Assembly (NCBI GenBank): GCA_034660675.1
Contig: JAYEJT010000074.1
Span: 1-55,364 of the forward strand
Length of the DNA: 55,364 bases
Direction of reading: 5' to 3'
Source: Elusimicrobiota bacterium
GTDB lineage: Bacteria; CG03
Part shown: in pieces, positions 10,980 through 55,364 of the stretch
Position numbering within the stretch: position 1 is the first letter of the stretch
Layout: every line of letters starts with the position of its first letter
Position numbers and translations under genes: made by a program
Notes under the pieces: model-generated
The model's database searches: none
Seen by the model: the letters and a program-made list of their open reading frames with translations, nothing else
Told to the model about the DNA's origin: nothing

Positions 10980-10987
10980 GAAATTTT

Positions 10988-18355: not shown

Positions 18356-18428
18356 AGCCCGAGAGCGGGATCGAACCGCTGACCTGCTCATTACGAATGA
18401 GCTGCTCTACCAGCTGAGCTACCCGGGC
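18356..18428 (-). tRNA. tRNA-Thr (CGT)
   Basis: The reverse complement folds as GCCCGGG-TA-GCTC..GAGC-A-GCTCA-TTCGTAA-TGAGC-AGGTC-AGCGG-TTCGATC-CCGCT-CTCGGGC-T. Confidence 0.8.
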
Positions 18429-32965: not shown

Positions 32966-32974
32966 GGAGAGAGT

Positions 32975-34090: not shown

Positions 34091-34980
34091 TGCTGAAAAA
34101 GAAACTTGAAAACATACCCCTTTTCGCGTCGCTGGCGGATGATGAGTTGGCTGCCCTGGCGGAGATTTCCGAAATCAAAAAATACAATCAGGGAGAAGCT
34201 GTATTCGCCGAGGGTGATAAGGGAAAGGATATTTTTTTTCTCGTGAGCGGCGAGGTTTCCATCCGGAAAAAAATATCGTCGGGCTTTAAAACCATAGCGG
34301 TTCTCCGTGAAGGCGATTTGTTCGGAGAAATGTCTTTTTTTGAAAATGCCCCCCGTTCGGCGGATGCTCTTGCTTCGGATGACTGCGATATTCTCGGCAT
34401 AAATGGCGCTGAGTTTGAGAGTTTCCTGTCTGACAAACCCCGTAAAAGTTTCAGCATTCTCATGAAGATGCTGGCAATATCTTCGGCGAGGCTGAGAAAC
34501 ATGGACAGGTATTTTACCACACTTTATCAGACTGCCAGGATTATGTCTTCCTGCTCTTCTGTGGAAGAGCTTGCGGAAAAGATTCTTCCGGAGATTATTG
34601 ATTCTCTGCCTGTCTCCGGCGCGGCCCTGTATATGTACAGCGTGTTTGACGGGGAATACAATCTGGCCGCGGCCGTATCAGCGGAGGCGGCTCAAACCGT
34701 TTCCAGCGGTTCTTCTTTTATGGAAAAACTCTCCGCGGGTAAAAATATCTGTGACGCAAATGTGCCGGATTTGCCGGGTTTGAGGTTTTTTTCACCGATA
34801 GAAGACGGAAACGGGCTGATAGGATTTATAGGGATTGCCGCGGCAAATGATCCCGCCGCTGAAGACAGAATACTGATCGGTACCGTCTGTAACATGATAA
34901 GTCCTGTCATTGTTAATCTGAGGACAAAACAGGAGGAGCTTATGAAAGACAGGCTTAAAAATAAAAAATGGCAGCTTTAG
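34090..34980 (+). CDS. Cyclic-nucleotide-binding (CAP_ED) domain protein with an uncharacterised C-terminal domain
   Basis: The cNMP-binding signature is GDLFGEMSFF ... RSADA. The start overlaps the pilT2 stop (TGATG). Confidence 0.65.
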   Translation: MLKKKLENIPLFASLADDELAALAEISEIKKYNQGEAVFAEGDKGKDIFFLVSGEVSIRKKISSGFKTIAVLREGDLFGEMSFFENAPRSADALASDDCDILGINGAEFESFLSDKPRKSFSILMKMLAISSARLRNMDRYFTTLYQTARIMSSCSSVEELAEKILPEIIDSLPVSGAALYMYSVFDGEYNLAAAVSAEAAQTVSSGSSFMEKLSAGKNICDANVPDLPGLRFFSPIEDGNGLIGFIGIAAANDPAAEDRILIGTVCNMISPVIVNLRTKQEELMKDRLKNKKWQL

Positions 34981-40435: not shown

Positions 40436-40509
40436 CGGGGTGTGGCCCAGTTGGCTAGGGCGCTGCGTTCGGGACGCAGAGGTCGGCGGTTCAAGTCCGC
40501 CCACCCCGA
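40436..40509 (+). tRNA. tRNA-Pro (CGG)
   Basis: Acceptor CGGGGTG/CACCCCG, anticodon stem CTGCG/CGCAG with loop TTCGGGA, and T-arm GGCGG-TTCAAGT-CCGCC. Confidence 0.85.
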
Positions 40510-43229: not shown

Positions 43230-44144
43230 ATGTATGTTGTAGGAATAGACGAAAACGGACTCGGCCCGCGACTTGGAATGTTCTGTGTGACAGCTGCTGT
43301 TTTTGAATGCAGCTCTTATGACAAAAATCTTTTCTGGAAAAACGCTTCCGATGGTGCCGTTGATGACAGCAAAAAAGTGATGGCATCCGGCCGCACGGGG
43401 AAGGGAAGAAGGATAGCCGCCGCGTATCTGGCGCAACTCGGACATTTTCCGGAAACCGACGCGGATTTTATAGAATTTGTTAATCACAGAAGCGCCGGTT
43501 CCCTCAGTAATGATTGCCCCCCGTGTGTAAGAAGCATGTGCAGGGCGGGGCATTCTCCTTTTTGTGAAGACAGCGTTTCAGCCGTTTCGGATAACCTGTT
43601 TTCGCTGCTGAAGGACGCCGGAATAAGATTTGCCGGAGCGGAAAGCGTGTTTCTTTGTCCGAAAGAATTCAACAGGGGGATAGACAGATTTGGTTCCAAA
43701 ATGATGCTGGAGTTTTTTATCATGGAGAAGTTTTTCAGGAAATACGGCGCAGCGGATACCGGAAGAGGGGAGACTCTTTTTATATGCGGAAAACTCGGAG
43801 GTACCAAAAGATACGGCCGGTATTTTGATTATCTCAAAAAATATAGGGTCGCAAATTTGCAGGAGGGCACTGATTCCTTCTATGAATTTGACGGGTTAGG
43901 GAGGATAGAGTTTGTTAAAGACGGCGATGCCCTGCATTTGCCGGTGGCGCTGGCTTCTGTTTTCGGTAAGCTTGTCCGTGAAATATTCATGGACAGTCTC
44001 AACGGATATTTTGGAAATCTTGACAAGAGCCTCCCCGTGGTTTCGGGTTATAACGACCATTTGACCCGTGAGTTTATAGAAAAGACCGTGCCGGTGAGGA
44101 GGGAGCGGGGTATACCGGATATCTGCTTTCTGAGAAAGCGCTGA
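43230..44144 (+). CDS. Divergent RNase HII-like protein with an internal Cys-rich insertion
   Basis: The N-terminus VVGIDENGLGPRLG ... DDSKKV parallels RNase HII motifs GxDEAGRGP and DSK. The C-terminal VALASVFGKLVRE resembles AASIxAKxxRD. There is an insertion of about 130 aa containing CPPCVRSMCRAGHSPFC. Confidence 0.45.
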   Translation: MYVVGIDENGLGPRLGMFCVTAAVFECSSYDKNLFWKNASDGAVDDSKKVMASGRTGKGRRIAAAYLAQLGHFPETDADFIEFVNHRSAGSLSNDCPPCVRSMCRAGHSPFCEDSVSAVSDNLFSLLKDAGIRFAGAESVFLCPKEFNRGIDRFGSKMMLEFFIMEKFFRKYGAADTGRGETLFICGKLGGTKRYGRYFDYLKKYRVANLQEGTDSFYEFDGLGRIEFVKDGDALHLPVALASVFGKLVREIFMDSLNGYFGNLDKSLPVVSGYNDHLTREFIEKTVPVRRERGIPDICFLRKR

Positions 44145-44224
44145 AAAATATTAAGGACGTCCCCTTTTCCTCTTTACACTTCCAACTTTTCAAACTATAA
44201 TAGTACTGAAAGGCCTGAGAAGGG

Positions 44225-44335
44225 TGCCTCTGAATTGGCTGGTCCAATATCGGCAAATCCGTCGTAAGGCGGAGACGCAAAGCCACGGGTCCCGTGCGGG
44301 AGCGGGGGACAGCCGGGTTGCCTGAGGATGGTGCG
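44225..44335 (+). promoter_or_regulatory. c-di-GMP-I (GEMM) riboswitch aptamer
   Basis: GGCAAA-TCCGTC-GTAA-GGCGGA-G-ACGCAAAGCC at 44252-44285 reproduces the GEMM signature: GGCAAA, a 6-bp P1 hairpin with a GNRA loop, then the invariant ACGCAAAGC. A GC-rich second hairpin follows. The element lies in a 230-nt 5' leader. Confidence 0.6.
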
Positions 44336-44339
44336 TCAA

Positions 44340-44370
44340 GGTTCAGTCAGACGAGGCTGAACCTTTTTTT
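44340..44370 (+). terminator. Intrinsic terminator (expression platform of the riboswitch): ggttcag-tcagacgagg-ctgaacc followed by TTTTTTT
   Basis: 7-bp stem and U7 tract read directly, ending 9 nt before the ATG at 44379. Confidence 0.6.
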
Positions 44371-44378
44371 AATTTATT

Positions 44379-45971
44379 ATGAAAAATAGAAAAGAAATTA
44401 CCGGATTGATGCTTACGGCAGCCGCTATTTTTGCGTTCAATTTCTATCTTGAAGCAGAAAAAGGGACGGGCGGCATGCCCGGAGCTTTTTTATCTTACGG
44501 AGCCGGAGCGAGGTCGCTGGCCATGGGTAAGGCCTTTGTCGCCGAAGCTTCCGACGCTTCCGCCACTTACTGGAATCCCGCCGGGCTCGGCAATGTGGAG
44601 AGACAGGAGGCGATGATGCTCCACACAATGCTTTGGGCGGGCACCACTTATGATTTCTTGAGTTATGTGCGGCCGATGACACAGCTCGGGGCGGTGGGTT
44701 TGAGTATGGTCAAAATGACGACCGGCGGTTTTGAAGGGTACGATGTGTATAATGACAAAGCTACCAATTTTAGCGATAATCAGATGGCGGTGACGATGAG
44801 CATGGGAAAAAAATTCATGAAAACTTTGTCTCTCGGAGCTAATTTCAGATATATGACGCACACTCTGGCATGGCACACAAATTCAAGCTTTCTCATTGAT
44901 ATGGGAGGGCTCTACGCTCTGCCGAAAACGCCGAATCTCCGGCTGGGTTTTAATATACAGAATATTTTTGAGAACAAGCTCTCGCCGACGGAAGACAAAA
45001 TGCCGTTGACAATACGCATGGGCGCGGTGTATAAGCAGTTTAAGGACAAGCTCTCCGTAACAACAGATATTGTCAGCATAGCGGGCGTGCCGGATCTGGA
45101 AACTCATTTCGGCGTGGAGTACTGGCTTCTGGATTATTTCGCGTTTCGCGCCGGGATGGACGCTCAGGAAAAGAGTTTCGGGTTTGGCGTAAACTGGCAG
45201 AGTATAGGTTTTGATTACGCCATGTCCATGCATGACCTCGGGCTTTCTCACAGGATGTCTGCGAGTCTCCGTTTCGGTCCTTCCATAGCGGCGAAAAGAA
45301 GGCTTGACGCGCGTCAGGAGTATTTGAAAGCACATGCGGCTTTTGAAAAAGGTTATCTCTCCCGCGGTAAGGATTTTCTGGGCAGAGCCGTTTCGCTGGA
45401 TCCGCAGAACACGGATTACATATATGAATTTGACCGGATAGACGTCATTATCCCCATTTACAGGGAGGCTCCGAAGCCCAGCAAGGAACACGAGCTTTTG
45501 CGCCGTAGCGTGAAAAAATATCTTGACCGCAGAGTTGAACACAGCCTGCAGATACTCCGTTATCTCCTCACGCTGGACCCCGGCAATGCCAAAGTTATCG
45601 CGCTTATACAGGCGGTCAAAAACAAAGAGGGTTTAACCGATCTGGAGCCGGAACTCCCGTCAGGGATGAATCTCGTGGACAAAAACCTCTATGATTCGCT
45701 TAATTATTTTTATGACGGGAAATATGAGCAGGCGCTGAAACTGGCTCAGGATGTTCTGATACTGGAGCCTAATTCGGCGCTGGCATACAAGAGAATAGGG
45801 TCCGCTTTTTTCGCGATAGGAGAAAGGGATAGGGCCGTGGCAAACTGGAAAAAATCCATAGAGCTCGATCCCACAGATGAAAAGCTGCGGCAGTTTGTGT
45901 CAAAGATAGAAAGAGAAGCCTCGGAGGCCGCTCCGACGGAAGGGCTGGATTTTCTGGATAATATGGAGTGA
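44379..45971 (+). CDS. Outer-membrane beta-barrel (FadL/PorV-like N-terminal region) fused to a C-terminal TPR domain
   Basis: Signal peptide. The GAGARSLAMGKAFVAEASDASATYWNPAGLG motif is typical of OMPP1/FadL/PorV-type barrels. The C-terminal 230 aa hold TPR repeats (YEQALKLAQDVLILEPNSALAYKRIGSAFFAIGERDRAVANWKKSIELDP). Confidence 0.55.
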   Translation: MKNRKEITGLMLTAAAIFAFNFYLEAEKGTGGMPGAFLSYGAGARSLAMGKAFVAEASDASATYWNPAGLGNVERQEAMMLHTMLWAGTTYDFLSYVRPMTQLGAVGLSMVKMTTGGFEGYDVYNDKATNFSDNQMAVTMSMGKKFMKTLSLGANFRYMTHTLAWHTNSSFLIDMGGLYALPKTPNLRLGFNIQNIFENKLSPTEDKMPLTIRMGAVYKQFKDKLSVTTDIVSIAGVPDLETHFGVEYWLLDYFAFRAGMDAQEKSFGFGVNWQSIGFDYAMSMHDLGLSHRMSASLRFGPSIAAKRRLDARQEYLKAHAAFEKGYLSRGKDFLGRAVSLDPQNTDYIYEFDRIDVIIPIYREAPKPSKEHELLRRSVKKYLDRRVEHSLQILRYLLTLDPGNAKVIALIQAVKNKEGLTDLEPELPSGMNLVDKNLYDSLNYFYDGKYEQALKLAQDVLILEPNSALAYKRIGSAFFAIGERDRAVANWKKSIELDPTDEKLRQFVSKIEREASEAAPTEGLDFLDNME

Positions 45972-46027
45972 GGGGCCAGAATATCATCTGCCGCACTTTG
46001 GCAAAATGTCAAATCTTAAATGTCTTC

Positions 46028-46057
46028 TTGCTCATCACCGTCTCTAATGTGTATAAT
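46028..46057 (+). promoter_or_regulatory. sigma70-like promoter (-35 TTGCTC 46028-46033, 18-nt spacer, -10 TATAAT 46052-46057) 5 nt upstream of the ATG at 46063
   Basis: Read directly. It shows the same leaderless geometry as the pilM, 13860 and PilZ genes. Confidence 0.45.
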
Positions 46058-46062
46058 ACAAA

Positions 46063-48162
46063 ATGCGTAAACTTATAATATTCGCGGCGATTTTTATAGG
46101 GGTCTCGGCGGCCCGCGCCGCTGAAAATAGCCCCGTTTTACAGGATATAGATTACACCGCTGTCATCGAACAGAAGATGAAGCTTGAAAACAAGCTTGAA
46201 AAATACGTGAACGGGGTTCTTGACAAATGGTTGGGCCCGGATAAAGCCTTGGTGAGAATTGATATAACGCCCAATGCCAGCAAGTCGCGCGTGGAAACCG
46301 AATCATGGGCGCAGAAGCAGTCCGATTCCGACGGTGTAGAGGCGCAGAGTTCCGCGATGTCGGAATTTCTTCCGGGCATTCCCAGAAAACAGGACATTAT
46401 GCAGAAGGCAAAAAAGGAAGGCGGTCCCGGGGAGGCGTCCGGCCAGAAAAGAAGTATAGAAAGCGTTGTGAAAATACCGGAAGCTTTTATAAAAAAAATA
46501 GACGCCACTCTGATCGTTGATCAGGCGCTGAAAGATGAAGAGTTTACCGCTGTCAAAACAACCGTTGTTGATATGCTGGGGATAGACCTCAAGAGAGGAG
46601 ATAAGCTGAACGTGATGAAGGTAAAATTTTCACCGTTCAAAAAACTTTTGTCATATCTGACCAATCTCGATTTTTATCTTGCCCTTGTCGCCATTGCTCT
46701 TTGTCTTTTGTTTTTGCGTTTCCTTTTTTCCATAGGGCCGACCCTGAAAGATTTGAAGCAACTGAAAAGTGAAGTTGACACGACCGGCGATGTCGCCGGA
46801 GGCGGCGGCGGAGGCGGTGGCGCAGGCGGCGGAGGAAGCGCCGGCGTTTCCGGTGAGCAGGAAGGGGAAGCCGAGGAAAAAGAGGCCGGGGCAGTTGAAG
46901 ACGAAATACCAGAGGAAATAAAACAGAAGGAACTGAAGGAATTGGTGGCATCACTTCCTGTTCCCGGCGAGGAGGTCGGAAAAATGGCGTTTAAACCGTT
47001 TAAATTTGTTGAAGAGAGTGACCTGAAAAAAATAGCATATCTGCTGTCTAATGAAGAGCCTGAGGTGACGGCGACGGTGATACATTACCTTGACGATGCA
47101 AAAGCCGCAAAATTGCTCAAACTGTTTCCGGAACACAAGAAACCCGATGTGATAATGGCTATAACTAAAGTACAGTTTGTTGAGCAGAAAAAGATAGCGT
47201 GTCTGGAGAGGGTGCTGAAAAGGCGGATAGATCTCACTTCCGGAGGGGTTGACCGGCTGCTTGACATATTATCCCTGATGGATGACAGCACGAAAAAAGA
47301 GGTGATGGGTCATCTTTCGTCCGAGAATCCTGAAATTGCCGAAAAGGTGGAAGCCATGATGTTTTCTTTTGAGAAAATGATATCTTTTGACGATCACACG
47401 CTTCAAACGGTGCTTGCGGAAATAAACGCTCCCGAACTGGCCATAGCCATGAAAGGCACGGGCGATGATTTTAAGGCTAAAATTATGACTAATCTGTCAG
47501 AAGCGGCGGGTAAACTTGTGGAAGAGGAACAGGAAGCCGGCCGTGCGGCAACCGCCACTGACGCGCAGGTGACATTACAGCGCCGGGCAATAATAACAAA
47601 GCTTAAAGAGTTAGATGACGAGGGGAAAATAAATCTTGGCGGAACAAAAGAAATATCAGTGTTTGAAGATGAGTTGACCGCTGTTTCGTCCAAAAACATA
47701 ATGGAAGAAGTAGAAGAGGAAATGGAAAAAGAAAAAAAGAGAGAAGCAGAAAGAGAGGAGAGGAGAAAAAAAATAGGTATGACGGAAGATGTCGTGCCGG
47801 TCCTGGACAATGAGAAATCATTTGAGCATTATTCGCGGGGTGAGGAGTTTTTCCAGGAGGGAAATTACGAAGACGCTATCCTTGAATTTGAGGCTTCAAT
47901 ACAGTATAACCCCGAAATATGGCAGACATATCAGTTTATGGGTTCGGCACTGTTTGCTTTAGGCCGTGAGCAGGCGGCGGTGACGGCGTATGAAAAATGT
48001 CTGGAACTCAACCCCGGCAATGAGGAACTCACTAAGTGGATGAAAGAGTACCATCACAAAAATAAACAGTCCGCGGAGGCCGCCGCGGAAGAGAATCAGC
48101 AGAAAGAAACCTCCGAGACCGGTGAGCCGGACTCAGTTGCGTCTTCTCAGGAGACTGAATAA
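46063..48162 (+). CDS. FliF-FliG fusion protein: signal peptide, periplasmic FliF/YscJ-like ring-building domain, TM helix, Gly/acidic linker, FliG middle and C-terminal (torque) domains, and a C-terminal TPR tail
   Basis: GIDLKRGDKLNVMKVKFSPF followed by TM LALVAIALCLLFLRF parallels the FliF region just before TM2 (GFSDKRGDTLNVVNSPFS). PEIAEKVEAMMFSFEKMISFDDHTLQTVLAEINAPELAIAMKGTGDDFKAKIMTNLSEAAG aligns with the FliG_C consensus (MFVFEDI..LDD..IQ.VLREVD...LALALKGASDELKEKI..NMS.RAA). Confidence 0.6.
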   Translation: MRKLIIFAAIFIGVSAARAAENSPVLQDIDYTAVIEQKMKLENKLEKYVNGVLDKWLGPDKALVRIDITPNASKSRVETESWAQKQSDSDGVEAQSSAMSEFLPGIPRKQDIMQKAKKEGGPGEASGQKRSIESVVKIPEAFIKKIDATLIVDQALKDEEFTAVKTTVVDMLGIDLKRGDKLNVMKVKFSPFKKLLSYLTNLDFYLALVAIALCLLFLRFLFSIGPTLKDLKQLKSEVDTTGDVAGGGGGGGGAGGGGSAGVSGEQEGEAEEKEAGAVEDEIPEEIKQKELKELVASLPVPGEEVGKMAFKPFKFVEESDLKKIAYLLSNEEPEVTATVIHYLDDAKAAKLLKLFPEHKKPDVIMAITKVQFVEQKKIACLERVLKRRIDLTSGGVDRLLDILSLMDDSTKKEVMGHLSSENPEIAEKVEAMMFSFEKMISFDDHTLQTVLAEINAPELAIAMKGTGDDFKAKIMTNLSEAAGKLVEEEQEAGRAATATDAQVTLQRRAIITKLKELDDEGKINLGGTKEISVFEDELTAVSSKNIMEEVEEEMEKEKKREAEREERRKKIGMTEDVVPVLDNEKSFEHYSRGEEFFQEGNYEDAILEFEASIQYNPEIWQTYQFMGSALFALGREQAAVTAYEKCLELNPGNEELTKWMKEYHHKNKQSAEAAAEENQQKETSETGEPDSVASSQETE

Positions 48163-51100
48163 TGGCGGATAAAAAAAACAAACCGAATCCCTTTTCGGGG
48201 GGGATGAAACCTCCTTCTTTTGCCGCGCCCGGGCCGCCCGGGGGTCCGTCTAAAATTCCTCCAAAGGGTCATGTTCCTCCCGGAGCCTTTTCGTCTTCCC
48301 CGGCGCAGCCGCAGGAAGATCAGAGACGGCCTTTACCCCGGAAGGGGGCGTTTGTTCCGGGTGGTTCAGGTTACACCGATCAGCTGAAATTAAAAATAGA
48401 ACAGGCGAAAAAAACTCTTGAAGACAGCCGGTTCAGAAAAAAAGAAAAATTTGAGCAGAGAGAACTTTACTGGATGAGCCTCCTCAAAGAAAAAGAAAAA
48501 GAAGCGGATACTATCAAGCGGGAGATGAAGGAAGCTCTTGAAAATATGGAAGACAGCCAGACTGAAAAAGAAACGGCTTTGCGCGGTGCTTTGCAGCAGT
48601 TTGAGAGCCGGCTCATGGGGGTTTCAAGAGAACTTGATGACGAAAAGAAAAAATCTTACAGGTCAATGCAGAAGGCGAAAGAGGAAAGTGAGGCTTCTCT
48701 TAAAATTGAAATGGCGCTGAAAGAAATAGTGTCATCCAAGGATTACGAAGACAAGCTGGAAAATCTTCAGAACGCCCGTGAGAATCTGCTCAAAGACATG
48801 ATAAGGCAGAAAGACAATTTTAACAGAGAGAAATCAGCGTTAGAAGATCAGATAGGGACGCTTAACGAACAAATATCTAATCAGCGGCAAATTATTTCAA
48901 GGAAAGAATCCGCGGAGCAGATTTTTGAGGCGCAGAAAGAAAAAGATATAGAATCCGCCCGTGCGGAAGCCAAAGCGCGGCTGGAAGATCTCCTGAGGCA
49001 GGTCAGGGGCCGGGAAGAAAGTGTGCGTCTCAAGGAAAATGAGTTCAGGGTACAGGAATTCGCGAACAAACAGCAGCTGGATAATATGAGCGGTGATCTG
49101 CGAAAAAAGGAATCTGAACTTTCGGCCGCCAGAGATACTGCCTCGCGCCTTGCCAGAGAACTCACCGCCGCCAGAAATGCCCTGGAAGAAGGAAATTCCA
49201 AGTTTGTCAAAGAGATAGATTGGCTCAAAAAACATTTTGATGAAGAACGCGCTGTTTGGGGCGGCCGTTTTGATAAGGAGGGGCGCTTGAGAAAGGAAGC
49301 CGTTTCCGCCCGCACGGACATCGCAAAAGAAAGAGACTCCATTTTTCGCGAACTTGCCAGGTCGCGGGTGAAAGAGGAAGATTTGTCTTCACGGCTTGCC
49401 GGAAAAGAAAAAGACATATCTGATTTAAAAAATTCTTTTGAAAAAGAGAAAAATGAAATCAAAGGCCTCTATGAATCAGGATTAGAACGCATAACATCCG
49501 CAAGAGACGCGCTCACCGGCGAGTTGAGGGCATCAGAAATTTCTATAAAGCGGCTCGAGGGTGAAAAGAAAGAAATTGAAGAAGAATTGGTGTCGGTAAG
49601 GAAAGCGTTTGCGGAAAAAGAGACCCGGGATAAAGTTCTTAGGGCTAAAATAGATGAATTGTCTTCTGAAAAACAAGGCCTTGAAAATGATGCGGAAGAA
49701 CGGCGGTTGTCGTTTGAAAGCGTGAAAAAACAGCTTTTTTTGCAAATAGATCAGTTGAAATCAGAAAAAGCGGAGATGGAGAAAGAAAACTTTGAAAACA
49801 AAAATATGCTGGACGGATTCAGCGGGGAGATTTCAAAGAAGGAGCGTGAAATCGAATTCGCGCGTAAATCTCTTCACGCAAAAATTTCGGAACATGCGCT
49901 GGAAAAAGAAAACCTTGAACGAAAAATAAAAATTCTGGAAGGGGAGAAATCAGAAGTGGAAAACGCCTGTTCGGAGTATTCCCGCGCAGGCAAAGACCTT
50001 GAGGAAAAGTTGAGGATCAAGACAGCGGATGAGGATAGCGCTTCCTCGGAGTTAAACGAATCAAAGCGTATCATCGGTGAACTTAACGGGCGTCTTTCGG
50101 AATCAAAAAAAGAGCTTTCGGGTTTTATGCGGAGAGAGGATGACCTGAAAGAAAAAATAGCAGATTACGAGAGAGTCATAGACGAACTCAATAAAAATAT
50201 CACAGTGATGCAGGAGGAAAGCGAAAAATCCGAAGCGCAAAAGGAACATGAATTAGAAAAAGCCATTTCTGAAATTGAGGAACTTAACGGAAAACTCAAT
50301 GGTTTTCTGAAAGAAAAAAACAAGCTTTCCGGGAAGGTTGATGCGATATCGCGTGAACTTTTTGATATGACAAAACAGCGGGACACGCTCTTTAAAGAAA
50401 AAAACATTGTTTCGGGAGAGCTTTCATCCGCAAAAACGCAAATTGAACAGCTCCTCGTCCGTGCCGCGGAGAACGCCGCGGCCATAGATGAGACGACGGA
50501 AGAAATCTCGCTGTTAAAGGACAAACTTAAAAATCTTTCCGCTTCACACAGTGTTGAAACGGTGGATCTTAAAAACAAGATTCTGGAACAGCACAAAAAA
50601 ATGGAGAAACTTTTTTCCAGAATCAACGAATACAATCTTGAAATAGAGGCTCTTAAGGCCGCGCCGCGTGAAACTGTTGAAGAATACAAGCGGAAATTAA
50701 TAGAGAGGCAGGACGCCGAATCTAAAATGAGAGAGGAGCTGGAAGAGCTCCGCGCTGAAAAAGAGCGTTCGGCTGAGAAAGACGGGAGAATAAAAGATTA
50801 CGACGGGAAAATAGAGCTGCTTGAGAAAAAACTTTCGGAGACGGAATCCGAAATGGGGAAAATGAGAGAGCAGAGCGCGGCGGCCTCCGGGATGGATGCC
50901 CAGATCGTGAGGAAAGACGCACAGCTTAAAGAAGCCTCAGGAGAGATCAGGGATCTCAGGGACAGGATAGAATCGCTTGAAGAAGAAAAGTCGGGTATCA
51001 GAAAAAAAATTGATACCGAGATAATTGACATAAAAGACGAATATAATCAACGCCGCGCGGAAATTGAGGAGAGAACAAAAGCTTTTGAAAAAACGAAAGA

Positions 51101-52055
51101 GGAATTAAATGAACTGCGGTCGAAATTTCAAAATTTGTCAGATGCGAATATTGCTTTGAAGGAAGAGGCGGAAGAAGCCGCTCTTGATAGCGAAAAATTC
51201 AAAAAATTTGCCGCGGACAAGGAGAGGGAAATAGGGGGCTTAAAAGAGCGTCTTGATCTGTCCAGGGAAGAAATCACGGCTTCGTACGAGGATAAAATCA
51301 AAAAACTTAGTGATGTGGCCGCCGAAAACGGAGACAAAGCGAAAAGTTTTGAAAATCAGCTGAAAGAAGCTGAGAAAGAGATAGCGCATTTGAAAGAATC
51401 ATCCTCTTCCGAATCACAACAGGCGGATGAGTTCAAAGAAAAACTTCGGGAGCTTGAAGCAATAATTGAAAAGCAAAAGAAAGATATTTCCGCGAAGATG
51501 GAGTACTTAAAAGACAAAGAGCTGGAATTCCACAAAATACTGAAAAAAAAGGATGAGGACATATCTGTTCTTAAAGCGCAGCTGGAAATAGGGCTGGAGG
51601 CCCTGGGCGGGAAGAGCGGCGCCGGCGCATCCGCCGTTAGCCCCGGTAGATCTTCAGATGCTTCTCCGGACAAAAAGTTGGACGAACTGCAAAAAATAAA
51701 TGAGGAGCTGAAAAGAAAATCGGCGGAACGTGAAGCCATGCTCAGGGAAGAAATAGAGAGAAAAGAGACCGAGGCGGCTGAATACAGAAACCAGATCAGC
51801 GCCGCCGAATCAAAACAGCCCGCGGAAAAAGCCGGCGCGCCGTCCGAGCTCAAAGATGAGATCAAAACCAGAACCATGGAAGCGGTCAGGCTCAAGTCGG
51901 AGATGACAAGGGCCAGAAATTATTACGAAAAACTCGAGGGTATTATAAAAAAGCAGGATGAGAAAATATCCCGGCTGCAGAATAAAGAAGACTCCGGCGG
52001 CGTTATTAAAAGGCATGACATTGTTTCCGATGATGAAGGGGATATAAAATTTTGA
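48162..52055 (+). CDS. Giant coiled-coil protein (1297 aa) with a Pro-rich N-terminal segment
   Basis: A single ORF with an AGGAG SD. More than 1100 aa are continuous E/K/R/L-rich heptad-like sequence with no NTPase motifs. The Ser-rich antisense ORFs are artefacts of the repetitive coding. Confidence 0.6.
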   Translation: MADKKNKPNPFSGGMKPPSFAAPGPPGGPSKIPPKGHVPPGAFSSSPAQPQEDQRRPLPRKGAFVPGGSGYTDQLKLKIEQAKKTLEDSRFRKKEKFEQRELYWMSLLKEKEKEADTIKREMKEALENMEDSQTEKETALRGALQQFESRLMGVSRELDDEKKKSYRSMQKAKEESEASLKIEMALKEIVSSKDYEDKLENLQNARENLLKDMIRQKDNFNREKSALEDQIGTLNEQISNQRQIISRKESAEQIFEAQKEKDIESARAEAKARLEDLLRQVRGREESVRLKENEFRVQEFANKQQLDNMSGDLRKKESELSAARDTASRLARELTAARNALEEGNSKFVKEIDWLKKHFDEERAVWGGRFDKEGRLRKEAVSARTDIAKERDSIFRELARSRVKEEDLSSRLAGKEKDISDLKNSFEKEKNEIKGLYESGLERITSARDALTGELRASEISIKRLEGEKKEIEEELVSVRKAFAEKETRDKVLRAKIDELSSEKQGLENDAEERRLSFESVKKQLFLQIDQLKSEKAEMEKENFENKNMLDGFSGEISKKEREIEFARKSLHAKISEHALEKENLERKIKILEGEKSEVENACSEYSRAGKDLEEKLRIKTADEDSASSELNESKRIIGELNGRLSESKKELSGFMRREDDLKEKIADYERVIDELNKNITVMQEESEKSEAQKEHELEKAISEIEELNGKLNGFLKEKNKLSGKVDAISRELFDMTKQRDTLFKEKNIVSGELSSAKTQIEQLLVRAAENAAAIDETTEEISLLKDKLKNLSASHSVETVDLKNKILEQHKKMEKLFSRINEYNLEIEALKAAPRETVEEYKRKLIERQDAESKMREELEELRAEKERSAEKDGRIKDYDGKIELLEKKLSETESEMGKMREQSAAASGMDAQIVRKDAQLKEASGEIRDLRDRIESLEEEKSGIRKKIDTEIIDIKDEYNQRRAEIEERTKAFEKTKEELNELRSKFQNLSDANIALKEEAEEAALDSEKFKKFAADKEREIGGLKERLDLSREEITASYEDKIKKLSDVAAENGDKAKSFENQLKEAEKEIAHLKESSSSESQQADEFKEKLRELEAIIEKQKKDISAKMEYLKDKELEFHKILKKKDEDISVLKAQLEIGLEALGGKSGAGASAVSPGRSSDASPDKKLDELQKINEELKRKSAEREAMLREEIERKETEAAEYRNQISAAESKQPAEKAGAPSELKDEIKTRTMEAVRLKSEMTRARNYYEKLEGIIKKQDEKISRLQNKEDSGGVIKRHDIVSDDEGDIKF

Positions 52056-52075
52056 AAAGAGGCGGTTAATAAAAA

Positions 52076-52858
52076 ATGGATTTTGCGACAATTGTAGGTT
52101 TTGCAGCGGGTATAGGGCTTATAGTCCTTGCTATTATCAGCCGTGTGGGGGTTGCGGGTTTTCTGACAAGTTTTGTGGATTACCAGTCTGTCGCTATCAC
52201 TCTTGGCGGCACCTTCGCCGCGACAATGGTTAATTATTCTTTCCATGAGCTTGTGAGTGTCTTTGCCATAGCCAAAAAGGTTTTTATGCAGAAAGATGAT
52301 GATGCCGTGGGAATTATAGATACCGTTGTAAGACTTACGAAAAAATCCAGGACACAGGGTATGCTCTCGATTGAGCAGGATATAAAGGAGTTACCCACCC
52401 CCTTTCTCCGTCACGGTTTTTCGCTCGTTCTGGCCAACATTGATGTTGAAACGATAAGAACGGAGCTTGAAACCGAAATAATTTTTTTGCGCGAACGGCA
52501 CAAGCTGGGGCAGGAGATATTTTTGACAATGGGGACATTTGCTCCCGCTTTCGGTATGTTGGGAACGATCATGGGTCTCATCATGATGCTTGCGAATCTG
52601 GAAGACCAGGCGGCTATTGCCGGCGGTATGGCCGTGGCTCTTCTTACAACTCTTTACGGCGCGCTTCTGGCGAATATCATATTTCTGCCTGTTTCCGGCA
52701 AACTCAAAAGAAAAAGCGAAGATGAAGTGCTGATCAAGGAAATAATAATAGAGGGAATAATATCAATGAAAAACGGTGACATTCCGTCAATAATAGAATC
52801 TAAACTCAAAGCTTATCTACCGCCGAAAAAAAGAGAAAGAAAAATCATAGAAAAATAA
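52076..52858 (+). CDS. motA: MotA/PomA-family stator (proton-channel) protein
   Basis: 260 aa with 2 TM helices, a cytoplasmic loop of about 100 aa, and 2 further TM helices carrying the conserved TFAPAFGMLGTIMGLI ... GGMAVALLTTLYGALLAN region. There is a GAGG SD. Confidence 0.8.
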   Translation: MDFATIVGFAAGIGLIVLAIISRVGVAGFLTSFVDYQSVAITLGGTFAATMVNYSFHELVSVFAIAKKVFMQKDDDAVGIIDTVVRLTKKSRTQGMLSIEQDIKELPTPFLRHGFSLVLANIDVETIRTELETEIIFLRERHKLGQEIFLTMGTFAPAFGMLGTIMGLIMMLANLEDQAAIAGGMAVALLTTLYGALLANIIFLPVSGKLKRKSEDEVLIKEIIIEGIISMKNGDIPSIIESKLKAYLPPKKRERKIIEK

Positions 52859-52859
52859 T

Positions 52860-53882
52860 ATGGTGAAAAAAAGGACGTCGGAGACAGAACAGGTTGGCCC
52901 GACAGCGCCGGGCTGGATGGTCACATACGGTGACCTCATGACACAGCTTCTTATCTTTTTTGTCATGATGTTTGCCCTGGCTTCCGCTATGAATGAGATG
53001 CAGCTGATCAATCTTCAAACAAAGATGCAGCAGTATATAGACAGAGAAGATCTGGGTAACGATGTTTCACTGGCTGTGGACGAGAGGGGGCTTATTGTTT
53101 CTTTTCACGGCGACAAGATGTATGAAAAAGGAGACGCCGAAATAAAACCCGCGGCGCTGACGGCTTTGGCCAATCTTGCGGCTTTCGTGCGGCCGCAGCC
53201 CAATGAGGTGCGGATAGAGGCCCACGCGGATAAGACAGAATCCCCGGGCAGATATTCATCGTTATGGAATCTTTCCTCTACGCGGGCCTCACTGATAGCG
53301 AAACAGCTTATTGGAAAAATATATTTTCCGCCTTACCGGCTTTCATCAGCCGGTTATGCCGAGCAGAAACCTTACATTGAAAAAGACGGCGATACATACA
53401 AAATGCTTGAAGGCCGGAGCGCAGATCTGCTTAAAACTTCTTCTTCCGCGTTTTTCTATGAAGTCAGCCGTATGATAAAAAGAAAGATAGATGCCGGATT
53501 GCTGGAAAAACGGAAAAAATTAGATAAAAAATACAGGAATGATCCCCGGGGCAAGGTTCTTATCCGTCTCATGTCGTCTAATTACAGAGCGGGGCTGGAA
53601 AAAAAATATAACAGGATATTTCAGCGTCTGAAATTAAAAACCGAATTCAAAAACAGAACGGGGAAATGGGCGGAGGCGGTCACGGCGCTTAAATTTGAAG
53701 ATTTTGAAATTGAAATCCTCGCGGCGAAGGAGGATTATATCAAAGCGCAGTTCTATGACAGACTGCAGAAGGAAATTGTGACGCTGGCTAACCTTTCCCC
53801 CTCGCAGCAGAACAGAAACCGCCGTGTGGACCTTATTGTGGCGCGTATTTCGCCGCAATCGGCGAAGGAACGCCTGCTGTAG
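52860..53882 (+). CDS. motB: MotB-family stator protein (TM helix with conserved Asp, OmpA-like peptidoglycan-binding domain, long Lys-rich C-terminal extension)
   Basis: WMVTYGDLMTQLLIFFVMMFAL matches the MotB plug/TM (WMVTYADLMT). The OmpA-like core is EAHADKT...NLSSTRASLIAKQL. About 140 aa of extra C-terminal sequence follow. Confidence 0.8.
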   Translation: MVKKRTSETEQVGPTAPGWMVTYGDLMTQLLIFFVMMFALASAMNEMQLINLQTKMQQYIDREDLGNDVSLAVDERGLIVSFHGDKMYEKGDAEIKPAALTALANLAAFVRPQPNEVRIEAHADKTESPGRYSSLWNLSSTRASLIAKQLIGKIYFPPYRLSSAGYAEQKPYIEKDGDTYKMLEGRSADLLKTSSSAFFYEVSRMIKRKIDAGLLEKRKKLDKKYRNDPRGKVLIRLMSSNYRAGLEKKYNRIFQRLKLKTEFKNRTGKWAEAVTALKFEDFEIEILAAKEDYIKAQFYDRLQKEIVTLANLSPSQQNRNRRVDLIVARISPQSAKERLL

Positions 53883-53939
53883 GGCAGGGCAAAACAATGA
53901 ATTTCCACTCCGGGAACTATGCCGTGTAAGGGTTTGGGT

Positions 53940-53962
53940 CCCGCGATTTCGCGGAATTTTGT
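53940..53962 (+). terminator. Possible terminator hairpin after motB (cccgcgatttcgcgg followed by aatttt)
   Basis: Short GC hairpin followed by a weak T-run. Confidence 0.25.
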
Positions 53963-55364
53963 GAGCGTATTATTTTTTCTGATACCTGTAGCCTTTTTCC
54001 CTTTTTTGAATGATTCTTTTGCTTTGCCGAAAGCTTTTCTTTTCTGGATGTTTGTTCCGCTTTTTTTTCTGACGGACGATTTTACCGCGGATAGAGAGGA
54101 AATACCCGTTTATTTTCTGGCGGGAATTTATTTTCTGCTGTCTCTTTTTTCAATATATCCCGCGCTCAGTTTCAAGGGGCTTTACAGATATTATTTCAGC
54201 GGTTTTTTCTCGCTTTTCGCGGGTCTTTCGTTATTCAGGATCTTGCGGAATTTTCCGGAAAAGGACGTTAAAAGACACATGTCTTTTCTGCTGCTCGCGG
54301 TTCTTCTGACATGCTCGGCGGTCTTTTTCGGACAGGGGAGAATTTCTTCCACATTCGGGAATCCGAATTTTTACGGCGGCGTGCTGGCGGCGCTGCTCCC
54401 GTATGCTCTGTATTGTTCGCTCTCAAAGAGGGTTTACGTGGTTCACCTGATATTTTTCGCGACAGCTCTTTTGATGACGTATTCCCGCGCTTCATGGGCG
54501 GGCAGTGCCGCGGGAATATTGTTCTTTGCTGCTGCCGGTAAGAAGGATGCCGCCTCCGGCCGGGCACGTGTCATTGCGGTACGGAATCTGCTTGCCGCGG
54601 CGGCCCTCATTTTTGCGGGGGCTTTGATCGTGGCGCCCGGGTTCGCGGCCGGAGTTTTTAAAAGAGCCGTTTCCGCGTTTGATCTGTCAGAGGCCGATAT
54701 CGTTTCAAGGTTTGAGGGATACACTGCGAGCATGGCGGTTTTCAGGGAAAAACCGTTGACCGGTTACGGCCCGGAAAGCTTTTCAATTCTTTTTCGTGCC
54801 CATGCTCCGGCCTCGTTTGTCAGGCAAACAGGGGGATTGGCTCATGCGGGTTACAGCCACTCTTATCCTCTGCAGATTCTCACCGAGACCGGCCTGGCGG
54901 GTTTGGGCGCCTGGGTTTTTCTAATATTCGTTCTTGTCAGGAAGGCGTTTGTTTCCCGGGAGCTCTTTAAAAAAGCCGCGGGGGCGGCTGTTACGGCGTT
55001 CTGTGTCACTAATTTATTCGCTTTTCCGTCTATCACCGAAATGCTTGTTTTCTGGTTCTCGGCCGCCGTGATATACGGTTTTCCGGCCGGTGGGCCGTCA
55101 CCGCGTGTAATGTTGCCGGCGTCTTTGACATTCCGTAAAAAGCGGTTTTTAACAGCGGTCAGATTTGCGATGGTTTCAGGTGCGCTGCTGATTTTATCAG
55201 CACCGCTGGTTTCGGAAGTATTTTTTACCGCGGGCGCGAAAACTTCATCCAGCGAGGAAGCGTATTCCCGCCTCCGGCGGGCGGCTTCTTTTTTTCCGGC
55301 TGATTATCATCTGATGAACGCCGGGAAAAGATGTTTACTGTTTTATGATGAGACCCTCTCTCCT
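53961..55364 (+). CDS. O-antigen ligase-like (Wzy_C) membrane protein, 3' partial (runs off the window); start uncertain (GTG 53961 or ATG 54048)
   Basis: The frame stays open to the window end and is absent from the ORF track because no stop is reached. Motifs GNPNFYGG, YSRASWAG and HAGYSHSYPLQILTETGLAG are typical of Wzy_C. It is a paralog of 5642-6970. Confidence 0.55.
   Translation, partial: MSVLFFLIPVAFFPFLNDSFALPKAFLFWMFVPLFFLTDDFTADREEIPVYFLAGIYFLLSLFSIYPALSFKGLYRYYFSGFFSLFAGLSLFRILRNFPEKDVKRHMSFLLLAVLLTCSAVFFGQGRISSTFGNPNFYGGVLAALLPYALYCSLSKRVYVVHLIFFATALLMTYSRASWAGSAAGILFFAAAGKKDAASGRARVIAVRNLLAAAALIFAGALIVAPGFAAGVFKRAVSAFDLSEADIVSRFEGYTASMAVFREKPLTGYGPESFSILFRAHAPASFVRQTGGLAHAGYSHSYPLQILTETGLAGLGAWVFLIFVLVRKAFVSRELFKKAAGAAVTAFCVTNLFAFPSITEMLVFWFSAAVIYGFPAGGPSPRVMLPASLTFRKKRFLTAVRFAMVSGALLILSAPLVSEVFFTAGAKTSSSEEAYSRLRRAASFFPADYHLMNAGKRCLLFYDETLSP

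Follow-up and report, generated by a model that had tools for sequence, protein, structure and literature searches.

The window analyzed here is the whole 55,364-nt contig JAYEJT010000074.1 from an uncultured Elusimicrobiota bacterium, and comparisons within the organism were confined to it. Toward its end, five ORFs at 44379-45971, 46063-48162, 48162-52055, 52076-52858, and 52860-53882 lie on the + strand, separated by gaps of 91, −1, 20, and 1 nt, and a sixth gene on the same strand runs from 53919 to the contig end. The initial annotation had described five co-directional genes behind one structured leader; the five + strand frames stand, but the count rises to six with the inclusion of gene 6, and the block forms a single operon of six or more genes. 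Domains were assigned with Pfam and NCBIfam profiles and the leader with Rfam models. The Pfam families suggested for these ORFs at the outset (FliG_C, FliG_M, YscJ_FliF_C, MotA_ExbB, and OmpA) all match, including the three in the central region, where failure to match FliG or YscJ_FliF models had been named as evidence against the proposed machine. The remainder of the window encodes pilM/O/Q, two PilT-like ATPases, and housekeeping genes. As first annotated, it contains no export-apparatus, fliM/fliN, rod, hook, or filament gene, nor did we find any other flagellar family in the rest of these 55 kb.

A c-di-GMP riboswitch precedes the operon

The top promoter-like site in positions 43900-55364 is a sigma-70-type promoter at 44173..44201 (+ strand; TTTACA-17 nt-TATAAT, 11 of 12 positions matching), and its −10 region is kept 5' of the aptamer as ACTATAAT/ATTATAAT in L001, L003, L004, and L009 (L numbers denote individual loci). 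Downstream on the same strand is a c-di-GMP-I-type aptamer at 44228..44332, which includes the extended 5' strand of the outer helix, CCUCUGAAUUGGC. Its core, 44243-44326, matches Rfam RF03167 with 60.1 bits against a gathering threshold (GA) of 59 (E 1e-11). This top-scoring model for the window is the GGC variant, about one bit above threshold, and the G that is diagnostic of that model is the canonical A here; the orthologous leaders score best with the plain c-di-GMP-I model. Twelve distinct orthologous aptamers lie 5' of the same gene in other loci. Among the 8 that were aligned, compensatory changes occur in 10 of 20 predicted pairs, so the proposed secondary structure is supported by covariation, and GGCAAA and ACGCAAAG do not vary; in the orthologous aptamer of L028, the G before GCAAA differs. 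An intrinsic terminator at 44338..44372 (+ strand), an 11-bp stem followed by TTTTTTT, forms the expression platform and stops 6 nt short of the gene 1 start codon. A terminator follows the aptamer in every leader inspected, and the original assignment of a c-di-GMP riboswitch plus intrinsic terminator is thus borne out.

The terminator 5' arm is complementary to the aptamer 5' flank; their predicted duplex has −23.0 kcal/mol, whereas 1000 shuffles gave −15.6±3.1 (fraction 0.021). The effect is modest in the window leader itself (z −2.4). In all 7 leaders tested, the terminator complements the 5' aptamer or flank better than 1000 shuffles do (fractions 0.000-0.027). This pattern indicates an OFF switch through which c-di-GMP would repress the operon. 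Transcription would begin at the promoter near 44200 and run through the aptamer; with no ligand, the aptamer 5' strand would pair with the terminator 5' arm and polymerase would read through, while binding of c-di-GMP would hold the 5' strand in the aptamer, let the terminator form, and turn the operon off. The Clostridioides difficile flgB flagellar operon has a c-di-GMP-I (GEMM-I) OFF switch upstream. The leader described here shares with c-di-GMP-I riboswitches the covarying helices, the two conserved motifs, the intrinsic terminator, and the predicted termination on ligand binding, but unlike the flgB switch it controls a non-flagellar operon. Expression at low c-di-GMP would be the regulatory logic of a motility-type function.

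A truncated FliF-FliG fusion

Gene 2 (46063..48162, + strand) encodes a FliF-FliG fusion by Pfam assignment, with scores of 30.8 bits for YscJ_FliF_C (GA 23.8), 50.8 for FliG_M, and 79.2 for FliG_C, plus TPR matches. A signal peptide (residues 1-20) is followed by the FliF S-ring domain RBM3 with a collar insertion (~25-190), a TM segment (~200-230), a Gly-rich/acidic linker, FliG_M (323-390), FliG_C (417-525), a charged helix, three TPRs (~583-655), and an acidic tail. The FliG_MC portion matches with E 4e-40. AF2 models have a moderate mean pLDDT of 63-65 and leave the presumed collar segment, residues 74-140, unmodelled. The predicted topology places the S-ring domain in the periplasm after signal-peptide cleavage, with one inner-membrane crossing and with FliG_M, FliG_C, and the TPRs in the cytoplasm.

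The claim of a natural FliF-FliG fusion with a TPR tail holds for the fusion and the TPRs, but the FliF part comprises only RBM3 and the collar region, RBM1 and RBM2 are not present in the fusion, and FliG_N is missing. The FliM-binding EHPQ motif reads EEPE. The protein lacks the FliF and FliG parts that contact the export gate, FliM, and the FliF C-terminus, and it joins in one polypeptide what the flagellar motor holds together by a non-covalent contact between the FliF C-terminus and FliG_N. Like flagellar FliG, it retains the MFxF and Gly-Gly hinges and the acidic torque helix. The charged ridge facing MotA, whose helix was first described as kept, is kept in part: three of its five classical charges are present (K264, D288, and D289 correspond to K464, E488, and E489), whereas 58 of 65 family members have G or A in place of R281 and the position of R297 shows no conservation in the family.

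A flagellar-type stator

Gene 4 (52076..52858, + strand; MotA_ExbB 100.7 bits) is a four-TM MotA/PomA-type stator subunit A. The MotP, PomA, and MotA equivalogs give 248, 230, and 185 bits, compared with 19.5 and 17.4 bits for TolQ and ExbB. The protein is ~40% identical to flagellar MotA and PomA and matches Clostridium sporogenes MotA from a stator bound to FliG (8ucs_C) with E 1e-53 and PomA with E 1e-48; it is of the 5:2-stator type and resembles solved flagellar stators most closely. It keeps both of the loop residues whose charges contact FliG in the flagellar motor, R92 and E100 aligning with PomA R88 and E96. Within the window clade the Arg is invariant, and in distant loci E100 becomes Q, which, together with the two ridge charges lost family-wide, implies an interface that differs from the flagellar one.

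Gene 5 (52860..53882, + strand; MotB_plug 48.4, OmpA 41.2 bits) is the MotB-type subunit B, so both original stator identifications hold. It retains a plug and a TM segment with Asp25, which is invariant, and an OmpA-like peptidoglycan-binding domain, with YGDLMT and NLSxxRA conserved. What had been taken for a 140-aa C-terminal extension is actually a helical insertion of ~145 aa (residues ~179-318) within the OmpA-like domain, between GYAEQKP and NRRVDLIV; alignment with the insertion-free orthologs of L007, L017, and L020 identifies NRRVDLIV as the last OmpA strand.

MotAB-like proteins also occur in Zorya-kind anti-phage defense systems, and MotB here weakly matches ZorB (36.6 bits), as does the coiled-coil protein described below the coiled coils of LmuB and JetC. 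However, MotA has no ZorA match and is of normal length, missing the long ZorA tail, and the block contains no ZorC, ZorD, other effector, nuclease, or other defense domain. Its chromosomal neighbors are conserved housekeeping genes (CorA and an RNase HII-like gene) rather than a defense island, and a role in defense is the least credible of the readings that we considered.

Non-flagellar partners

Gene 1 (44379..45971, + strand) encodes a PorV/PorQ-family beta-barrel (~35-300) with periplasmic TPR repeats (~305-510) by NCBIfam and Pfam assignment, in agreement with the outer-membrane barrel and TPR tail proposed earlier. It scores 136.1 bits against the NCBIfam PorV/PorQ family NF033709 (cutoff 90) and 25.8 bits against Pfam UPF0164 (GA 21.4), with TPR_2/TPR_1 above GA, and is far under the equivalog cutoffs for PorV (62 of 250 bits) and PorQ (66 of 220 bits). 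Full-length homologs (26-90% identity) lie directly 5' of the fusion gene in nearly every locus with that sequence present; in L021, one gene intervenes. In the Bacteroidota GldLM/PorLM T9SS and gliding systems, an ion-driven motor in the inner membrane is linked through the periplasm with barrels of the PorV/PorQ/PorP kind in the outer membrane. Gene 1 is a PorV/PorQ-family member, but the motor here would be MotAB with a FliG/FliF ring instead of GldL/GldM, and no GldK/N, SprA, or other T9SS core gene occurs in the window.

Gene 3 (48162..52055, + strand), whose start overlaps the gene 2 stop, encodes a 1297-aa protein that matches no curated family, with SMC-type coiled-coil matches only, far under cutoffs. 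It is assigned by composition as a cytoplasmic coiled-coil protein: a Pro/Gly-rich N-terminus (1-70) precedes ~1200 aa of predicted coiled coil (E 16.7%, K 13.3%, 5 prolines in 1227 residues), no hydrophobic or TM segment was found, and the chain ends in a conserved acidic peptide, ...HDIVSDDEGDIKF. Orthologs range from 426 to 1659 aa and have the start MAD..PPPPFGG in common, and the end D-I-x-S-D-D-x-G-x-I-K-F is common to the window clade. In L019, a Roadblock/LC7 (MglB-like) gene adjoins the coiled-coil gene. The Myxococcus Agl-Glt machinery likewise combines an ion-driven stator homolog, envelope-spanning partners, and TPR proteins with a long cytoplasmic coiled-coil protein, AglZ. Its stator AglRQS is TolQR-type, unlike the MotA/PomA-type stator of the block, and it is not known to contain FliG or FliF. 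The terms “gliding-like” and “AglZ-like” that had been applied to the machine and its coiled-coil protein are best read as analogies.

Gene 6 (53919..55364, + strand, partial) encodes a polytopic O-antigen-ligase-like membrane protein (Wzy_C 55.6 bits, GA 31.7) that runs off the contig; full-length orthologs bear C-terminal TPRs. We include it in the block because it is kept 3' of motB in at least 10 other loci, directly in L002, L003, L004, L007, L008, L009, L013, L026, and L028 and farther 3' in L024 and L033.

These partners bear on the possibility of a non-rotary, ion-driven envelope energizer, Tol-Pal/TonB-like in use, in which MotAB would pull or remodel a static FliF/FliG-like scaffold, either tethering or remodeling the outer membrane or powering the export or assembly of a Wzy_C-made glycan. 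The conserved barrel with periplasmic TPRs, the peptidoglycan-binding MotB with its large insertion, the Wzy_C-type polymerase/ligase, the PMT_2 glycosyltransferases that recur in the flanks of the block, and the partial loss of the flagellar electrostatic interface would all suit such a device. The stator, however, is of the MotA/PomA type (185-248 bits) and not of the TolQ/ExbB type (17-19 bits), and what it faces is a genuine FliG_MC, complete with hinge motifs and acidic torque helix, carried on a FliF ring-forming domain. No use other than rotation is known for these parts. The leader, moreover, resembles an OFF switch, whereas c-di-GMP usually activates polysaccharide production. We regard an energizer as rather unlikely, while giving it more weight than any other alternative.

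Conservation of the block outside flagellar contexts

A synteny search of the kind that the initial annotation had suggested found about 30 public loci with the block. The riboswitch precedes it in nearly all of them, and the genes stay together at identities ranging from 77% to about 25%. L002-L010, L013, and L024-L034 share the full order OMP-TPR / fusion / coiled coil / MotA / MotB / Wzy_C, and the distant L015, L017, L019, L020, and L021 retain the OMP-TPR and fusion core, usually with MotAB and a Pro-rich coiled coil. No motAB was found within 10 kb in L019 and L021, and in L035 it occurs on the opposite strand only. L017 and L019 adjoin T9SS-type CTD proteins with PorV or PorP/SprF genes, both behind c-di-GMP aptamers in L019. 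The RBM3-TM-FliG_MC architecture is present in at least 68 of the best 150 clusters at 50% identity.

This conservation leaves little room for the view that the block is what remains of an ancestral flagellar locus, now functionless and in decay. Some canonical residues have been lost, and Elusimicrobiota are mostly non-flagellated (10.1101/2022.07.08.499144), as such decay would predict, but the reading frames are all intact and tightly packed or overlapping, the riboswitch is conserved and covarying, and the block persists across this range of loci, identities, and clusters. Invariant functional residues also persist, including the MotB Asp, the window-clade MotA Arg, the FliG Gly-Gly hinge, the F-x-F core of MFxF, and, in the ring domain, RGD and LPG(I/V)P. 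We consider decay highly improbable.

No flagellar neighbor was found in any of the about 30 loci; for six of them, precomputed Pfam annotation covering ±10 kb contained no flagellar family, nor did the 25 commonest of the 46 families matched by 32 additional flank ORFs include one. A peripheral operon of a genuine flagellum, with the fusion replacing FliF and FliG or serving a second motor and the rest encoded elsewhere in the genome, is accordingly improbable. The three core families are all flagellar, and MotA has the flagellar identity noted above. Engineered fusions of FliF to FliG work in Salmonella, and the Vibrio S-ring structures were reportedly obtained with a fusion chain (PDB 8z4d). 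Those Salmonella deletion-fusions and the Vibrio chain (8z4d/8z4g) are, however, laboratory constructs of full-length FliF and FliG within a complete flagellum, whereas the present fusion is natural, has lost sequence from both partners where they meet, connects them by a Gly-rich linker, and is set in a non-flagellar gene context. RBM1 and RBM2, which surround the export gate in FliF, are missing along with FliG_N and an intact EHPQ, and the constant partners (PorV-family barrel with TPRs, giant coiled-coil protein, and Wzy_C protein) are non-flagellar additions. Complete flagellar gene sets do occur in a few Elusimicrobiota, but most of the free-living ones have no flagellar structural genes and still carry motAB and fliG homologs, whose role was described as “unclear” (preprint, 10.1101/2022.07.08.499144).

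A candidate rotor-stator machine

The reading that we favor, and hold to be moderately probable, is a non-flagellar, envelope-spanning, ion-driven rotor-stator machine encoded by one c-di-GMP-repressed operon. Of the two readings first offered, a reduced or rearranged flagellar motor locus and, as the more interesting one, a distinct machine reusing the FliF/FliG/MotAB core, the latter survives with several details corrected, favored by the conservation of the block as a unit in about 30 loci, none with a flagellar neighbor, by a fusion that lacks the interface parts for export gate, FliM, and FliF C-terminus, and by the preprint cited above.

By analogy with FliF and FliG, tens of fusion copies would form a membrane ring with a built-in 1:1 stoichiometry of S-ring to FliG, assuming that the ring can assemble without FliG_N, FliM, and FliN. 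Peptidoglycan-anchored MotAB, powered by the ion gradient, would push against the acidic helix of FliG_C (E487-E491), and the ring would then turn or be forced against its partners. More speculatively, in a machine that has no export gate, rod, hook, FliM, or FliN, the periplasmic TPRs of the PorV/PorQ-type barrel may connect the ring to the outside, and the TPRs of the ring protein may connect it to the ~1300-aa coiled-coil protein inside, possibly at the conserved acidic C-terminal peptide of the latter. The Wzy_C-TPR protein probably modifies or polymerizes a glycan that the apparatus requires. The machine would most likely produce surface-associated movement or carry components of the outer membrane or cell surface, rather than rotate a filament. 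The operon points to an undescribed motor assembled from flagellar pieces.

A FliF-FliG fusion protein

Gene 2 (46063-48162, + strand) encodes a protein of 699 residues that runs from a cleavable-looking signal peptide ending ARA-AE through a periplasmic domain of ~170 residues, one transmembrane (TM) helix and a Gly-rich/acidic linker to FliG_M, FliG_C, a charged helix, three TPRs and an acidic tail. FliG_M (PF14841) and FliG_C (PF01706) are matched at 50.8 and 79.2 bits, the FliG part aligns with T. maritima FliG_MC at E 4e-40, and structure models of moderate confidence resemble full-length FliG structures by fold (Foldseek E 6e-9). No match to FliG_N was found in gene 2, and the whole-protein FliG equivalog TIGR00207 reaches 119 bits against a cutoff of 226.7, covering model positions 109-333 only.

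By sequence the evidence for the periplasmic part is weak, with Pfam YscJ_FliF_C at 30.8 bits, and its only two PDB sequence matches are both FliF, at the RGD..L.V strand and at TM2. Residues 74-140, with an invariant EFLPGIPxK motif, occupy the position of the FliF collar insertion and lie outside the structure model. Of FliF, the protein has the S-ring domain RBM3 with a collar insertion and then a TM helix. RBM1, RBM2 (YscJ_FliF, PF01514) and an N-terminal TM helix were not found, PF01514 giving no match in gene 2, and the ~170 residues are all there is of a periplasmic stretch behind the signal peptide. On its domain matches, then, gene 2 is a FliF(RBM3 + collar)-TM-FliG(M + C)-TPR protein without RBM1/RBM2 and without FliG_N. 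The initial annotation had described a natural FliF-FliG fusion with a TPR tail, and this is borne out, with YscJ_FliF_C, FliG_M and FliG_C all matched and TPRs matched as well.

A flagellar-type stator and an altered interface

Gene 4 (52076-52858, +) scores 248, 230 and 185 bits against the MotP, PomA and MotA models, as opposed to 19.5 for TolQ and 17.4 for ExbB, and it aligns at E 1e-53 with the MotA chain in 8ucs, a solved complex of stator and FliG. Since these scores stay below the equivalog cutoffs for MotP, PomA and MotA (341-394 bits), it is a relative, and no orthologue by the NCBI criterion. Its loop residues R92 and E100 align with PomA R88 and E96. Gene 5 (52860-53882, +) matches MotB_plug (48.4 bits) and OmpA (41.2 bits), with YGD25LMT, NLSxxRA and NRRVDLIV conserved. 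Its identification as MotB stands, but the 140-aa C-terminal extension first attributed to it is an insertion of ~145 aa before the last OmpA strand, NRRVDLIV. This insertion (residues ~179-318) is basic and helical and lies inside the OmpA-like domain; among the public loci carrying related blocks (numbered from L001), the clade closest to the window and L006 have it, L008 has a shorter form, and L007, L017 and L020 lack it.

The defence system Zorya pairs ZorB and effectors with ZorA, a MotA-like protein with a long tail. PADLOC gave no ZorA match and only a generic ZorB match (36.6 bits), and on these results we rejected Zorya, or another defence system, as an exceedingly improbable identity for the cluster.

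For the face that FliG turns towards MotA we used the T. maritima FliG_MC alignment, with ridge residues that we take to be K264, R281, D288, D289 and R297 in E. coli numbering. Gene 2 keeps equivalents of K264 (K464), D288 (E488) and D289 (E489), together with the Gly-Gly and MFxF hinges, and has A481 in place of R281 and Thr in place of R297. Among 65 family members, K or R stands at K264 in 49, G or A at R281 in 58, E or Q at D288 in 49 and 16, respectively, and E at D289 in 46, and there is no conservation at R297. Of the conserved charged ridge proposed earlier, the charges at K264, D288 and D289 are kept and those at both arginines are lost. On the stator side, the MotA loop Arg is retained in the clade closest to the window, and distant loci have Gln in place of the loop Glu, as would fit the absence of R281, its partner in flagella. 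The FliM-binding EHPQ motif of FliG_M reads N-E-E-P-E in gene 2; across the family the E alone is invariant, and the P is conserved. Taken together, the altered ridge and loop residues and the EEPE motif describe a rotor-stator interface that is recognisably flagellar yet systematically changed. Judged by sequence, the docking features for FliM and for the FliF C-terminus are lost from gene 2. The family-wide loss of two ridge arginines, paralleled in distant members by an E-to-Q change in MotA, amounts to a natural experiment on the rotor-stator interface.

Operon partners and genomic surroundings

The best promoter of the region, a sigma-70-like TTTACA-17-TATAAT (44173-44201, +), stands before six genes on the + strand that are separated by gaps of 91, -1, 20, 1 and 36 nt. 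The initial annotation was right about co-direction and counted five genes, having missed gene 6 (53919 to the contig end, +), which encodes a polytopic Wzy_C (O-antigen-ligase-like) protein (55.6 bits) and runs off the contig; an orthologue follows motB on the 3' side in at least 10 other loci. At the other end of the window (136-6970), two genes come after a pilM-(N)-O-(P)-Q cluster: one for a small TPR protein (5049-5648), the other for another Wzy_C-like membrane protein (5642-6970), which scores 28 bits, under GA, and is no close paralogue of gene 6. Because a TPR gene adjoins a Wzy_C-like gene here too (5049-6970), the pairing of TPR and O-antigen-ligase-like protein occurs twice in the window.

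Gene 1 (44379-45971, +; 530 aa) matches the PorV/PorQ subfamily model NF033709 over residues 37-300, followed by TPRs, at 136.1 bits against a cutoff of 90, and stays below the equivalogs PorV (62.1 of 250), PorQ (66.5 of 220) and PorV2 (71.6 of 325); the product is a barrel of the outer membrane whose TPR arm lies in the periplasm. No T9SS core genes were found in the window. Gene 3 (48162-52055, +; 1297 aa) is Pro/Gly-rich in its first 70 residues and beyond them has five prolines only, 30% Glu + Lys and no hydrophobic segment. We rejected it as an SMC protein, since the coiled-coil stretches alone match SMC-type models, far below cutoffs, and there is no ATPase head. Its orthologues in L002-L010 range from 426 to 1659 aa, keep the Pro-rich MAD..PPPPFGG start and end in two kinds of C-terminal peptide, ...HDIxSDDxGxIKF in the clade closest to the window and ...KKPFxRKLxDKLxxSKxIxLL in L008 and L010.

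On the 5' side of the promoter lie a CorA gene and an RNase HII-like gene. The latter, an ORF of 304 aa (43230-44144), matches RNase HII only C-terminally, at residues 225-283 (30.6 bits, with no single stretch passing by itself), and is kept beside CorA, 5' of the cluster, in L001, L024, L025, L032 and L033. The window otherwise holds pilM/O/Q, secDF, tgt, tRNAs, two PilT-like ATPases and housekeeping genes. The PilT-like T2SSE ATPases (382 and 371 aa) are neighbours at 31817-34980, directly followed by a cyclic-nucleotide-binding-domain protein, and four of the six tRNA genes cluster at 10896-11622, the others lying at 18356-18428 (-) and 40436-40509. As first noted, no export-apparatus, C-ring, rod, hook or filament gene occurs in the 55-kb window, and family searches show no further flagellar family.

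Conservation and distribution of the block

Two peptide motifs retrieved 26 loci from GTDB species genomes and JGI metagenomes, the metagenome scan, with the family alignment A1, giving 15 loci, and exact look-ups added 11 more. A word-indexed profile search with the diverse alignment A3 recovered the known close clade only, and the distant members come from an exhaustive representative search and exact look-ups. In the close and intermediate clades, where the fusion is 32-77% identical, the gene order OMP-TPR / fusion / long coiled coil / MotA / MotB / Wzy_C-TPR never varies as far as each contig extends, except in L035, which has motAB on the opposite strand; this is the outcome of the synteny search that had been proposed for the block. 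Such conservation argues against a flagellar relic, which we consider highly improbable.

The RBM3-TM-FliG_MC architecture extends further, to at least 68 of the best 150 clusters in the exhaustive search of 1.84 billion cluster representatives. These proteins measure 470-840 aa; some have TPRs and others do not, and in one a histidine kinase forms the N-terminus. For five distant members the genomic context is available, and in each a full-length gene 1 homologue (26-40% identity) lies 5' of the fusion gene, next to it or close by; MotA and MotB follow the fusion in L015, L017 and L020, a Pro-rich coiled-coil protein follows it in L019 and L020, and two-component, GAF or cyclase regulators adjoin distant loci. 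No motAB was found within 10 kb in L019 and L021. In L020, on contigs of up to 204 kb, an 842-aa member (L020:10001-12529) places a complete HisKA/HATPase_c histidine kinase before a signal-anchor, RBM3 and FliG_MC, and a CHASE2-guanylate-cyclase gene lies 3' of motAB. In three loci of different subfamilies, an FMN riboswitch and a ribD-ribE-ribBA operon stand just 3' of the cluster (L013:20180-20307, L014:18927-19054, L021:7843-7981), which is probably a conserved neighbourhood only. As deposited, most MAGs are labelled Elusimicrobia/Elusimicrobiota or plainly 'bacterium'; one is labelled 'Caldiserica' and another 'Deltaproteobacteria'.

Export-apparatus, C-ring, rod, hook and filament genes were found in none of the flanks of the loci inspected, and fliM and fliN in neither the window nor any locus; the annotated flanks are likewise free of flagellar families, as are the 25 most frequent of the 46 Pfam families present in 32 further flank ORFs. 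The constant partners of the fusion are non-flagellar, its FliF and FliG interfaces are missing, and the literature also speaks against a peripheral flagellar operon, so that we regard this explanation as unlikely.

A c-di-GMP-I-type riboswitch in the leader

Between promoter and gene 1 lie an aptamer of the c-di-GMP-I clan, Rfam CL00126 (44243-44326, +), matched by RF03167 at 60.1 bits against a gathering score of 59, and an intrinsic terminator consisting of an 11-bp hairpin and a T-tract (44338-44372, +). Orthologous leaders score 41-73 bits with RF01051, RF03167 or RF03168. RNAalifold on eight of them predicts the two-hairpin aptamer fold with 20 pairs, 10 of which have changed on both sides (compensatory), and GGCAAA and ACGCAAAG are invariant in all eight. 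The c-di-GMP-I signature and terminator recognised by the initial annotation are thus confirmed by score, covarying helices and hairpin.

The window aptamer scores best with RF03167, the GGC variant, which we take to be marked by G for A at the intercalating position of ACGC-A-AAG (model consensus ACGCGAA). Against the RF03167 consensus GACGCGAAgCc it reads GACGCAAAGCC, with A where the GGC model has G, and all eight aligned orthologues read ACGCAAAG at that stretch; orthologues are assigned to plain c-di-GMP-I. With A at the diagnostic position and plain c-di-GMP-I orthologues, we treat it as an ordinary c-di-GMP-I aptamer and rejected a distinct GGC-variant specificity class despite the best score.

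An aptamer lies 5' of gene 1 in all loci of the six-gene type with sufficient upstream sequence, bar L006/L030, where none was found (L006 being scanned even at E ≤ 1), and L035, which has none at the gathering threshold, so that riboswitch control is frequent, not universal. Distinct aptamer sequences number 12 in six-gene loci, plus that of L019, which precedes a response-regulator gene, itself 5' of the gene 1 homologue; L015 and L017 have kinase or response-regulator genes in place of the riboswitch. L019 in fact carries two divergent c-di-GMP-I-type aptamers (5485-5568, -; 7379-7461, +), of which one heads the response regulator, OMP-TPR, fusion, an 830-aa coiled coil and a Roadblock/LC7 (MglB-like) gene and the other a subtilisin whose C-terminal domain is of T9SS type, along with a PorV-family gene. 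The aptamer at L028:5171-5249 (Rfam label c-di-GMP-I-UAU, 69.3 bits) reads AAGAGCAAAUCC where all others have ..GGCAAA, the G just 5' of GCAAA being A. This G-to-A change at a ligand-contact position is presumably the mark of the cGAMP-selective GEMM-Ib class, and the L028 aptamer may sense another dinucleotide.

Every leader inspected has an intrinsic terminator 3' of the aptamer, and the terminator region is matched by complementary sequence in the 5' flank or 5' portion of the aptamer. In the window, L001, L003, L009 and L013, strand CCUCUGAAUUGG pairs with arm AAGGUUCAG, and in L007, L008 and L010 GAUAAAGGCAA pairs with UUGCCUUUAUC. Duplex energies, with the terminator hairpins hand-checked, beat 1000 shuffles in 7 of 7 leaders (fractions 0.000-0.027). 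Binding of c-di-GMP should retain the 5' strand within the aptamer, leaving the terminator free to form; going by this complementarity, the leader should be a c-di-GMP OFF switch. The riboswitch is a ready experimental handle on the operon.

A possible motor and its output

One way to read the cluster is as a non-rotary energiser of the envelope or of a glycan, and the barrel, the MotB insertion and the Wzy_C protein all fit such a role. A MotA/PomA-type stator opposite a true FliG_MC fits it poorly, as does the predicted repression by c-di-GMP, and we find this reading rather doubtful.

The reading that we tentatively prefer, though we are far from confident of it, is a free-standing rotary motor: an FliF-S-ring/FliG rotor turned by MotAB, without type III export gate, rod, hook or filament, and found widely among uncultured bacteria, Elusimicrobiota for example, that mostly lack flagella. 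Its PorV-type barrel and giant coiled coil would couple it to a novel surface motility or surface-protein transport, and it would either have descended from the flagellar motor by reduction or have survived as a relative of that motor's pre-flagellar rotor-stator core.

Starting from the observed domains, topology signals, catalytic and interface residues, operon, block conservation and aptamer, and from what is known of FliF, FliG and MotAB, the fusion would form a large membrane ring, a periplasmic S-ring with a cytoplasmic FliG ring, driven by peptidoglycan-anchored MotAB units via the MotA Arg and the acidic FliG helix. The anatomy of the remaining parts suggests that the periplasmic TPR arm of the PorV-type barrel could couple this ring to the outer membrane, that the cytoplasmic TPRs could hold the coiled-coil protein, perhaps at its conserved ...SDDxGxIKF end, and that the Wzy_C-TPR protein might supply a glycan. 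By the OFF-switch logic, the operon would be expressed at low c-di-GMP. At two distant loci the neighbours are genes for T9SS-type CTD proteins together with PorV or PorP genes; one of the two, L019, has a Roadblock/LC7 gene besides. With the OFF-switch logic, these neighbours incline us towards an output in surface motility or in the movement of surface proteins, which is the weakest step of the model.

Full-text literature searches turned up no description of a natural FliF-FliG fusion, or of an FliG/MotAB cluster outside flagella. To our knowledge, and as far as these searches went, FliG and the FliF ring are known solely as parts of the flagellum, and although 5:2 motors of the MotAB type have been recruited elsewhere (Tol, Ton, Agl-Glt, GldLM, Zorya), we know of no case together with a flagellar rotor. 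The parts come from known families: what we describe is the rotor-stator core of the flagellum in a new setting. Should the machine indeed rotate and drive something besides a filament, it would count as a bacterial motor of a new kind. A conserved operon of rotor and stator only would show that this core is a portable module, here fused into a ring protein of fixed 1:1 composition and wired to new partners. Such an operon would supply a natural "motor without secretion system" and with it a new angle on how the flagellar motor was joined to the export apparatus.

A preprint on magnetotactic Elusimicrobiota reports that most free-living members are without flagellar structural genes yet have motAB and fliG homologues, whose role is called unclear (10.1101/2022.07.08.499144). 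The cluster offers a concrete candidate for these unexplained homologues of non-flagellated Elusimicrobiota, including magnetotactic ones without known means of swimming (10.1101/2022.07.08.499144).
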